64,000 nt of DNA. Source: Podarcis cretensis (taxonomy: Eukaryota). This document shows positions 12,369 through 22,476 of the stretch, piece by piece; positions within the stretch are counted from its first letter, which is position 1; each line of letters opens with the position of its first letter. The stretch lies in contig OX638162.1 in the NCBI GenBank assembly GCA_951804945.1, forward strand, positions 36,828,001-36,892,000, read 5' to 3'. The notes under the pieces were generated by a model. It ran no database searches and had not been told where the DNA came from. It was given only the letters and a program-made list of their open reading frames with translations. Made by a program: the position numbers and the translations under genes.

Positions 12369-12743
12369 TCACACAGGTAGTGTACTTGTGGATGAGGAGT
12401 ACTTGACCTCATCTCTCTGAGCTGACCCCACGTAGTTGTCCCGCCTGGCAGCGTACTCCCCAACGTTGGGCAGTCCTGGCACCACGCAGCAGCTCAGGGC
12501 ACTGCGGTAGATACTCATGTCGTGGGCGTCGTACCACTCGTCCGTCTTCTCATCATAGCACTCAACGTTGAACGTTGTCGTGAAGCCGTTGAAGCCACCC
12601 ACCACAAAGAGCAGGTCGTCCACCACTTCGATGCCAAAGTTGCTGCGAGGGTTGAACATGGTTGGGATGGTCCTCCAGGTGTTGGCAATGGGGTTGTAAG
12701 CTTCTGCGCTCCGGAGGCGGTTGGCTCCGTCAAATCCGCCCAC
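12369..12743 (-). CDS. KLHL10: KLHL10 exon 5 (Kelch, stop)
   Basis: CTCACAG acceptor, [16 protein letters not shown]...TSTLPV, TGA at 12369-12371. Confidence 0.96.
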   Translation of the reverse strand: MGGFDGANRLRSAEAYNPIANTWRTIPTMFNPRSNFGIEVVDDLLFVVGGFNGFTTTFNVECYDEKTDEWYDAHDMSIYRSALSCCVVPGLPNVGEYAARRDNYVGSAQRDEVKYSSSTSTLPV

Positions 12744-15700
12744 CTGTGAGGCAGCAAAAAGACAGGGAGTCATTTAGAGGAGGAGGAGGAGGAGGAGGCG
12801 GCGGCTGCTTCACACCAAGTCAGACCACTGATCCAGGCAGATCAGGGAGGCACTGTCCAGATGCTGGGCCCAAACTCCCATCAGTTCCATGCAATAGCAG
12901 TAGTCAGGGCTGGTGCAGAAGGACATTTTATTGCCCAAGATGAAGGACCAGATGGCACAAGAGGGAAGCTGCCATAGGGGCCAATGACCAGAGAAGAGAG
13001 ATGTTGTCATCTGATCAAGTCTTCTGTGCACACTGAAAGCTTGCATAGCACTAGTTTAAATCAACACAAATTGTTCCAGTAGAAGACTTCACAGAGGCAT
13101 TTGACTCCCTACTTTAAATTACACCTCGGCATGGACTCACTACATGTCCTATATGCAAACTACAATTGTAGCCTTAACTTTACTGTGGGATAAAAGCAAA
13201 GACCTGCTATAGAGGGTTGCTGTACGGGTCACCAATACAGAACTTTAAATGCTTAAACTGGTGTACAACTGCTTGCAAATATGGTTATTCCATAGGCTAC
13301 AAGAAATCAGCAGATGGATCCTAGAGCATCTGCACTGCATGCAGAAGGCCCCAGGTAACTCCAGGTAGGACTAAGAAGGAACCCTGCCTAAAACCCTGTA
13401 GAGTCTGTCAATGTAGACAATAGTGAGCTGGACAGAGCAATGGTCTCATTCAGAATAAGGCAGCTTCCTGTGTTCCTATGTAATCCATTATATCTGCACT
13501 CAGCTATTTGTTTTGACTTCCCCATTTCCTTCCTGGTGCAGCCCAAGCAGTATGAATCAAAGCCCTGTCAGGCTGAGGACTTTTTCACTGTGGCTTGGAT
13601 TTCTGTGGTTTAAATTGTTTTGTACGTGTTTTGGAATTATAAGTTATCAACAAGAAACTTTAATGGATTTTTTTAAAAAAGAAACACCCTGATACATAAA
13701 AGCAATACAACATGGAGAGGCTGAAATTATTTAGGCAGAAGTCACAGGTGGCATTTAATTTTTTAAAAAAGAAAAGTGGTATATGAGGACTTAAACTGAC
13801 CAGTCATGTGCTCCTAATACAGGAGCATAAGAAATGGCTTTGCCTTGATAAGGAAGGACAGTCACTCTGAACATGCTCAGAGGTTCTCTTCCTTCCATAC
13901 AACCTGCAGGTTGAAACAGAAAAAGCCCCCCACAACACACATGTGGCGATGCATGGTAGTGTTGGGAGTGTGTGATTTAGGAGCTTGACTCCAACTTCAG
14001 TGAGAGATTGTGGAAACAATAGTTGCAACCCTCAGCATCAAACTGATGTCTGGGAGAGGGTGGAACACTGTGAACTATGGACAGGCCACTGGAGGCCCTC
14101 CTTTCGGGTTTCCCTTGCTCTCAGTGTAGCCCGATCCCAAAGCCTCCTGAAAACATGCACTACTACACACAGAGGCCGTGCAGAAACACAGGTGATAAGC
14201 TGCCACACCTTGCCTAACAATAGGTGTAATATAAGGTATCTGATAATTGTAAAGGATGTGCGGGTACAGGTAATGTTGCTAGTTAGCATTAGTGATAACT
14301 GAGCTATATAATATGCACCAAACCAAGTAAAGTGTTCTTTGTTATTCAGTAATCTCAGAATGTGTGTCAGCAACTTCCTACGTTGGCAACCTCCCACAAC
14401 AGAAAAGAACTTTGGTGTGAGTAGTGGGATGAGGATTCAGCAGAACCACCTGAAGGAATGGCCCAACATTGAGTGTAATTGCATATACTTAGTGATTACC
14501 AAATAATATGTATGTTACAGTAAGGCTGGCCCTGCTGCCATCACCACCAGGATAGCTGCAGCTTGGAGGTCTTAGTGCCAGGCATTGAGACCCCAGTAGC
14601 TGTCTGAAGATGCCAGCTGTTGATACCAGGCTGAGAAGATCGCCACAACCTTCAGAAGACCACTAAGATACAGCATTCTTGCCATTTTGTGCCTATCCAC
14701 TTCCTTAAATATATACAGTTCATGAGCAACAGCTTGGCCAGCACTTGGTCCACACCAAACCCAAAGGAGGCAGCATTGTTCCAACAACTTTACCGCCAAA
14801 GGGTGCTGCAGGCTTGCCTGCCATTACGGGCACAAAAGGACCCTGGCCTTACTGCGTAGACGTGTTCTCCGTACGCTATCACGCCAATGCCGCTTCGCCT
14901 GCTTCTCATGGGTGCGATCAAGCTCCACTGATCAATCTTGGCGTCATACACTTCTGCTGTGAACAGGCACTCATTTCCGTTGAACCCACCACATATATAG
15001 ACCTTTTTTAAAAATGGAAAGCAAAAAATAGGAGGTTTGTGAAAATATTGTTGAAATAAATTCAATGCCATTGTAGAAAGAATTGTTGGCCCTGTCCACT
15101 TTACACGCATATCGGTCTGATGGCTTTTTAATTGTTATAGTATCCTCCAGAGAACCCTGGGGATTGTAGTTTGGTGAAAGCACTGAGAATTCTCACAGGC
15201 TTTCTAGGCCTCCAGGTAAAACTACAGCTCCCATGATTCCTTGGGAGAAGGAATGGCTGTTGTTAAGTGTGGATTATTAATTTTTTAATCTTGGCCTTCC
15301 TCCAAGCTCCTCAAAGCAATGTACGACGTACCTCCCTTGTAATTCTTACAACACTGTGAGGCTAAGTTAGGCTGAGAGAGAGGGAATGGGACAAGGACAC
15401 TCAGTGAGCTTTGTGGCTGAGTGGGGATTTGAAGCTTACTCTTAGTTCTACTATGACCACGAAACCCACACCAGCTCCTACCCTGGATACACTTAAAAGT
15501 TTGTATCGGGGTTTGGGAACCTGTGGCCCTCCAGATGTTGCTGGAATCCATCAGCCCCAGTTGGTATGTCCAATGGCCAAGGATGATGGCAGATGGAGTC
15601 CAACAACAGCTGGAGGACCACAGATTTTTCATCTCTGGTTTATATTAACAGAAACCAAGATTGTTTTTCCTGTTGAAATAGCTGGCTGGATAACCTCTCA

Positions 15701-21700: not shown

Positions 21701-22476
21701 CCTTCTTCTTGACTTATTTGGCTTTGATAAAAGACTCTGCTTCTGAATTATGCTTTTGGATGCCATTTGGCATCCCCTTGACTTGAAGACACAACCTGAA
21801 ACTATTAATTGGTGGACATGAGTTAAGAACACACTCATTTACCTTTTAAGACAATTTGATTAAATGTTGCTGTAACAGAGAATGAAAGTTACATTACAAT
21901 ATGGTTCTCGACTATTCTGGTAGTTAAAAAAAAACAAATAATAAATAATAAACCCTATTCTGGTAGTTTTTGTTTTACTAAATTTATCATTTAAATGGGA
22001 ACTATTTGGTGGTTTTCGCAATATGATCACTTCTTTGAGTTTAATTGATCAGTTAAAAGGCAGATGAACAACTAATAAATTTCAACTGCCTGTCAACCTA
22101 TTAATTAGTGGTTATGACTTCCACACAACTGCAATCTGGGATAGAGAGGGTGAACCAGCAGCCAACCACATCTTTGAAGACAGCAGGAACTCAAGCATCT
22201 ATTACTGAATAAAATGAGCCCTTAAATCAAGACATATTCCTGGGAATTTTGCCAGAGAAACCAACTCTTGCCTGTTAGAAGCACTGACCTAAAATAGGAG
22301 CTGCAGCTACAGAGGATGTTCTTGTGGGCATTGAACTCGCACCCATTGACCTTGATGATCACGTCACAGAGCTTCCCTTCCAGTCGAAGTTCGTTGAAGA
22401 CTGTACAAGCCATCGCACTCATCTTCCTCTCCATGTGGCGGTGGGAGTACCCCGCCGAAGCAGAGGCATCATCCAT
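12369..22476 (-). CDS. KLHL10: KLHL10 (kelch-like protein 10; BTB-BACK-6 Kelch CUL3 adaptor), complete: exons 22289-22476, 20040-20529, 17988-18605, 14853-15002, 12369-12743; 1821 nt, 606 aa
   Basis: Translation is near-identical to recalled human KLHL10 ([56 protein letters not shown]-terminal [14 protein letters not shown]). GT-AG introns, no frameshifts or stops. Confidence 0.95.
14853..15002 (-). CDS. KLHL10: KLHL10 exon 4 (Kelch)
   Basis: AAG acceptor, [17 protein letters not shown]...GEHVYA, GTAAGG donor, 150 nt. Confidence 0.94.
16385..17225 (-). mobile_element. Degraded L2-like LINE
   Basis: A-rich 3' end on the left and L2-like RT-region remnants on the minus strand. Confidence 0.45.
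17417..17904 (+). mobile_element. CR1 LINE 3' end
   Basis: [52 protein letters not shown]...; ends TTCCAACTCTATGATTCTATGA. Confidence 0.92.
17988..18605 (-). CDS. KLHL10: KLHL10 exon 3 (BACK end, Kelch repeats 1-3)
   Basis: CTCTGCAG acceptor, [11 protein letters not shown]...ATTLYGK, GTAATG donor, 618 nt. Confidence 0.96.
19123..19348. mobile_element. Tc1/mariner (Tigger-like) MITE nested in a SINE head
   Basis: Perfect 18-bp TIR CAGTGGTACCTCGGGTTA/TAACCCGAGGTACCACTG with TA duplication; flanks rejoin as CCCACTGAGCTA|CAGCTCTCCC. Confidence 0.88.
20040..20529 (-). CDS. KLHL10: KLHL10 exon 2 (BTB/BACK)
   Basis: TTTTTCAG acceptor, ALFTSSWNN...AVLLPK, GTTAGC donor, 490 nt. Confidence 0.96.
22289..22476 (-). 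CDS. KLHL10: KLHL10 coding exon 1 (BTB N-terminal part)
   Basis: ATG 22476 (MDDASASAG...CSCSSYF), GTCAGT donor, phase 2. Confidence 0.9.

Follow-up and report, generated by a model that had tools for sequence, protein, structure and literature searches.

A complete KLHL10 gene between WDR24 and JMJD8 in lizards, probably relocated at the DNA level from beside KLHL11

The 64,000-nt stretch of Podarcis cretensis DNA analysed here (the window) contains an intact, intron-bearing KLHL10 flanked by WDR24 and JMJD8. This site is derived and common to Podarcis, Pogona and Anolis, and the site beside KLHL11 is, by parsimony, ancestral. KLHL10 alone moved, without its neighbours, and in all likelihood it did so through one DNA-level copying of the whole gene into the WDR24–JMJD8 interval in a lizard ancestor, after which the original was lost.

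The gene is on the minus strand, and its five coding exons join into 1821 nt that encode 606 amino acids and a stop codon, with no internal stops. Exon 1 (22289-22476) carries the ATG and the start of the BTB region, exon 2 (20040-20529) spans what we take to be the BTB/BACK region, exon 3 (17988-18605) holds the first kelch repeats, exon 4 (14853-15002) continues the spliced reading frame, and exon 5 (12369-12743) carries the stop. All four introns (1759, 1434, 2985 and 2109 nt; phases 2, 0, 0, 0) are GT-AG. Six regularly spaced GG motifs, putative marks of six kelch repeats, occupy residues 293-529 of the protein. This reconstruction bears out the original prediction of a complete five-exon, 606-residue KLHL10 between WDR24 and JMJD8 and on the same strand as both, all three genes being on the minus strand. 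An approximate 3′ UTR (11820-12368, minus) contains AATAAA at 12352 and 11871, and the RNA depth of a related organism is about 2-4 over it as far as the bin starting at 11820, falling to near zero past that point.

Upstream, WDR24 (24171-35842, minus) has its 5′ CpG island at 35001-36000, and one of its exons matches the solved human protein in the PDB (E 1.3e-123). Its stop, which ends at 24171, precedes the KLHL10 ATG by 1694 nt, in agreement with the roughly 1.7 kb first estimated. The intervening gap (22477-24170, minus) is CpG-poor, contains no AATAAA and three ATTAAA, and comprises the WDR24 3′ UTR and a stretch that presumably serves as the KLHL10 promoter; CRE, RFX, MYB and GCNF motifs upstream of KLHL10 show no excess over chance. 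Downstream, a CpG-rich stretch at 8001-9000 (o/e 0.62-0.72) opens JMJD8 about 3.6 kb beyond the KLHL10 stop, which is the distance originally given. The 5′ part of JMJD8 fills positions 1-9000 on the minus strand and the gene extends past the window start, beyond which STUB1 follows on the plus strand. JMJD8 is the least secure name among the neighbours: four of five pieces of its short exons have no Pfam match and the fifth has a sub-threshold JmjC match. The name follows from a presumed sequence resemblance, from the tail-to-tail arrangement with a U-box gene (STUB1) and from Pogona, where the order is identical. Beyond WDR24, at its other end, a leucine-rich-repeat exon with LRR domains (58657-59238, minus), which from its place in the gene order we take to be FBXL16, marks the conserved block. 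The repeats of this genome resemble what we assume to be Sauria SINE, Bov-B and CR1 elements, which speaks for a squamate and probably for a lacertid.

The identity of the gene is anchored in other amniotes. Over the first 360 residues, the part visible in the alligator source, a count by eye gives 326/360 identical positions (90.6%) and no gaps against AsBTB6, a BTB-BACK-kelch gene with five CDS segments and 605 amino acids (PMC11477308), and such high gap-free identity is what an orthologue should display. The table itself leaves AsBTB6 without a KLHL10 name; that name follows from the general character of the family and from the Pogona gene of the same slot, which forms a reciprocal best pair with chicken KLHL10 (79.62% identity) and matches Anolis KLHL10 at 97.62% (PMC4902969). 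The lizard gene is like KLHL10 of alligator, chicken and mammals, a BTB-BACK-kelch gene of spermiogenesis (PMC11477308, PMC5661822), in its five coding exons and its length (606 vs 605 amino acids), both compared with alligator, and in its six GG motifs of kelch type, but differs in chromosomal place and neighbours, being co-stranded with WDR24 and JMJD8 and CpG-poor upstream. Chicken KLHL10 stands tail to tail with KLHL11 and probably head to head with NT5C3B, and lizard KLHL10 does neither.

Published maps, in the parts available, place the gene elsewhere in mammals and archosaurs. On human chromosome 17, KLHL10 is grouped with KLHL11, NT5C3B and ACLY (PMC9689318, PMC5661822), and the human JMJD8-WDR24 gap measures 262 bp (PMC6813133), in agreement with the human arrangement originally described, in which JMJD8 and WDR24 are adjacent and KLHL10 lies by KLHL11/NT5C3B. 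Chicken chromosome 27 lists NT5C3B;KLHL10;KLHL11;acl (PMC10776626), with KLHL10 and KLHL11 consecutive (orders 232 and 233) and 4.1 kb apart (PMC4902969), and on chicken chromosome 14 a published table leaves 3.7 kb and one gene, presumably JMJD8, between STUB1 (367) and WDR24 (369). The alligator KLHL10-like gene is likewise 4.1 kb from KLHL11, and both pair with adjacent great tit identifiers (PMC11477308). Lizards differ. Pogona scaffold scf000728 carries JMJD8 (6), KLHL10 (7) and WDR24 (8), all minus, and chicken partners are assigned to 12 genes of this scaffold, 11 of them on chromosome 14 and one, that of KLHL10, on chromosome 27; in that assembly the WDR24 and KLHL10 models overlap and the latter is labelled KLHL10.1 (PMC4902969). 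In Anolis, WDR24 (2) and KLHL10 (3) share one scaffold and JMJD8 is on another, and KLHL11 (615) and NT5C3L (616) are consecutive on chromosome 6 (PMC4902969). Pogona KLHL11 and NT5C3L fall at the ends of different scaffolds, so that the emptied site is seen in Anolis and Podarcis only. The available part of the PMC11477308 collinearity table has no Podarcis pair for KLHL10 or KLHL11 and is therefore uninformative, and the portions of the cobra and snake sex-chromosome supplementary tables at hand contain no match that would place snake KLHL10. The order is thus not general among non-mammalian vertebrates, a possibility that had been raised as a limit on novelty, since birds and alligator differ; Pogona and Anolis do share it, in tables dating from 2016.

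Within the Podarcis genome (1.51 Gb, 51 contigs), KLHL10 is single. Exon 3 finds itself as the sole match at 100%, and the next of 65 kelch matches, on contigs C1-C19, has 34% identity; searches with exons 1, 3 and 5, three of the five, reveal no second copy, which answers the call for such a check. In contigs of a related organism, depth over exon 5 is 23 against 21 on the flank, a single-copy level. The mammal-type site is on contig C13, which reads, in order, ACLY, KLHL11, a cN-III nucleotidase gene and FKBP10-like exons; ACLY and FKBP10 are names that we assume, KLHL11 has a PDB match (E 5.9e-83), and the nucleotidase is read as NT5C3B, its paralogue letter being assigned by position. About 7.2 kb, with no N, separate the KLHL11 stop from the next CpG island. 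None of the five KLHL10 exons is found at this site, where the sole significant matches in 100 kb are KLHL11 itself. KLHL10 is on contig C14, and hence the gene and its empty parental site are on different chromosomes.

A short trace at the old site was considered as a KLHL10 fossil and rejected. Within a 600-bp genome-unique stretch, 25/32 nt match exon 2 on the predicted strand (C13:17705816-17705847); the controls gave 2/40 tiles, a shuffle p of 0.023 and 2/116 tiles, or about 0.1 after allowing for five exons, which is not significant, and the narrower region was picked when the match was already known. In one comparison the match to exon 1 exceeded every one of the 40 tiles (shuffle p 0.043), but it lies in the wrong order and is noise in the narrower test, and exons 3-5 have no significant match at the old site relative to controls.

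The direction of the move follows from these positions. Mammals and archosaurs, which bracket lizards, have KLHL10 beside KLHL11, which makes that site ancestral; four outgroups keep it, and next to WDR24 the human and chicken genomes offer scarcely any space for the gene or none, which makes the WDR24 side derived. The move likely predates the split of the Podarcis lineage, Anolis and Pogona and postdates the lizard-archosaur split. If the window is from a lacertid, KLHL10 moved before lacertoids and toxicoferans diverged, and snakes are then expected to share a WDR24-side KLHL10. Among the three histories that the original prediction left open, a DNA-level move is therefore favoured, an ancestral WDR24-side site is disfavoured, and reciprocal loss of two copies needs at least two extra losses.

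That last history would have an early amniote or older vertebrate carrying KLHL10 at both sites, with lizards losing the KLHL11-side copy and mammals and archosaurs each losing the WDR24-side copy. KLHL10 duplicates do exist, as klhl10a/b in cyprinids and as four germline copies in hagfish (PMC10972751, PMC10179623, as far as these sources were available), and chicken-Pogona identity in the available tables is lower for KLHL10 (79.62%) than for KLHL11 (85.69%) and WDR24 (92.93%) (PMC4902969). Against this, the losses would have to be independent and to have reduced the human interval to 262 bp and the chicken one to a size that cannot hold the gene, and the lizard-alligator likeness, again counted by eye over 360 residues, is that of plain orthologues. 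We regard an older duplicate as unlikely. About as improbable, and slightly more so, is an elaborated account in which a whole-gene jump on the squamate stem left a readable exon 2 fossil, exchanged a shared CpG-island promoter for a CpG-poor one behind WDR24 and thereby altered the site of expression, and would also have kept KLHL10 off the chicken-27 block, which later joined the snake Z. An ancestral WDR24-JMJD8 slot, from which KLHL10 moved beside KLHL11 in other lineages, draws on the fact that the root is seen only through amniotes, yet mammals and archosaurs share the KLHL11-side site and two moves into the same gap would be required, and this account is very improbable. Still less credit is due to a retroposed transcript, wholly or partly spliced, that later acquired new introns: a bias towards testis is frequent among genes that arose by retroposition (PMC3242482), but the gene has four GT-AG introns and its five coding exons equal in number the CDS segments in alligator, so that the loss of parental introns that defines a retrogene is not seen and the prediction that this is not a retrocopy stands. 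Mis-assembly is next to excluded, for although contigs of two other organisms tile JMJD8-KLHL10 and break at high-copy repeats with none spanning it, the same order recurs in the independent Pogona and Anolis assemblies (in the available tables), no N occurs in 114 kb (the window and a 50-kb flank), depth in the other organisms' contigs is even over the JMJD8-KLHL10 stretch, and the sequence of the old site runs on unbroken and lacks the gene.

In the favoured history of a single DNA-level copying followed by loss of the original, a several-kb segment that carried the five exons complete, and in all probability the promoter as well, would have been copied into a short WDR24-JMJD8 gap, most likely by double-strand-break repair or repeat-mediated ectopic recombination, a default choice in that no agent left a trace. 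No long repeat pair, target-site duplication or terminal repeat brackets KLHL10 within 8800-24200, which, with the breakpoint also unseen, makes the molecular route a guess; with an assumed age of more than 100 My, bracketing repeats would not be expected to survive. The new copy would have been expressed well enough to make the original redundant, and the original would then have decayed. Mouse Klhl10 is dosage-sensitive and required for spermiogenesis (PMC5661822, in the part available), which suggests that loss before copying is unlikely and that the promoter was carried along or quickly replaced; given this sensitivity, a single locus may have been favoured or tolerated. In spermatids the protein presumably continues to link substrates to CUL3 as an adaptor.

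Such a move belongs to a known class that forms a steady background. A comparison of chicken with zebra finch counted 37 pairs of DNA-mediated relocated genes (PMC3242482), and in bilaterian invertebrates about 0.6% of families relocate per 100 My, or about one per My, with DNA-based events outnumbering retroposed ones about 5:1 (PMC13689697). As the available parts of these two sources describe them, relocated genes are one-to-one orthologues on non-homologous chromosomes with introns kept, and lizard KLHL10 is alike, being a single-copy, one-to-one orthologue with introns kept and its parent gone from a non-homologous chromosome. It is no different in kind, and its move is polarised by outgroups and common to three lizards. 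It resembles orphan retrogenes in that the parent gives way to a copy located elsewhere (PMC3548309, as far as available), but unlike them it keeps its introns. The KLHL10 order is already visible in the 2016 supplementary tables (PMC4902969) and is an ordinary gene relocation. The available parts of PMC6609395 and PMC10146909 contain nothing on KLHL10 position, and a main-text report of the move was not found in the literature searched, which was without most subscription papers.

As a clean, polarised rare genomic change, the KLHL10 move could mark deep squamate branches independently, and its position in the lepidosaur tree would follow from whether gecko, skink, dibamid, snake and tuatara share it. 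Orthology calls based on synteny drop lizard KLHL10, which is flagged as non-syntenic in the available tables (PMC4902969). Thinking on the function of the protein is unchanged by the move, and the relocated gene offers a natural experiment on whether the promoter of a gene active in spermatids travels with it.

Public sequencing runs speak to the 3′ end of the gene. Part of the stretch from exon 3 to WDR24 is contained in 20 of 24 listed runs (8 studies), none of the 20 being labelled as RNA, and four of the 24 were examined over 7400-14000. In one bulk RNA run from a related organism, of which 12% was read, depth is 2-3.4 over exon 5 and the 3′ UTR, with all reads oriented as those of JMJD8, and both the intron bin adjoining exon 5 and most of the interval towards JMJD8 are free of reads. 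This shows that the KLHL10 3′ end is transcribed and nothing beyond that, and a single-cell run has similarly low depth over the same 3′ end.

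On C13, the contig of the same genome that bears the old site (ACLY-KLHL11-NT5C3B-FKBP10, without KLHL10), an AATAAA is found 4.25 kb beyond the KLHL11 stop (C13:17699323-17703600), in agreement with the 4.1-kb gap between KLHL10 and KLHL11 in both chicken and alligator. This correspondence suggests that a long KLHL11 3′ UTR is conserved and remained at the old site. At C13:17705816-17705847 (L022:5816-5847 in the excised piece around that site), 25 of 32 nucleotides on the minus strand agree with KLHL10 exon 2. The surrounding DNA is unique and the strand is the predicted one; the match did not reach significance against controls. 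Inside the KLHL11 intron, an open frame of 300 codons on the minus strand (C13:17694919-17695818) looks to us like an LTR-retrotransposon fragment.

In the window, the stretch from the WDR24 stop to the KLHL10 ATG (22477-24170) is devoid of AATAAA and holds three copies of ATTAAA, at 23819, 22934 and 22713. Transcription reading through from WDR24 toward KLHL10 is possible. If human KLHL10 numbering is offset by two from lizard residues 214 and 311, the residue altered by the infertility variant A313T (lizard residue 311) would be a kept alanine, and the position of Q216P (lizard residue 214) would be occupied by threonine in the lizard and glutamine in alligator.

KLHL10 intron 2 harbors an element with 20-nt perfect inverted ends, presumably MITE-like (19121-19350), and intron 3 a fragment that we label CR1-like (17311-17900); the ACLY region of C13 holds a piece resembling the latter. 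Fragments taken to be Bov-B-like lie at 9109-9467 and about 4110-4260, the former showing very high read depth and marking the point at which contigs between JMJD8 and KLHL10 are interrupted. Reading frames of non-LTR retrotransposons are represented by two 3′ fragments, both on the plus strand: one in the last WDR24 intron (25976-27029) and one close to the window end (61366-62304). Related pieces are carried by C13.

In the flank containing STUB1, the neighbor of JMJD8, two exon-like pieces of a putative minus-strand gene (L031 about 5140-5280 and 7450-7660) are arranged head-to-head with STUB1. In Pogona, too, RHOT2 and STUB1 are separated by two genes for which no chicken partner is listed.
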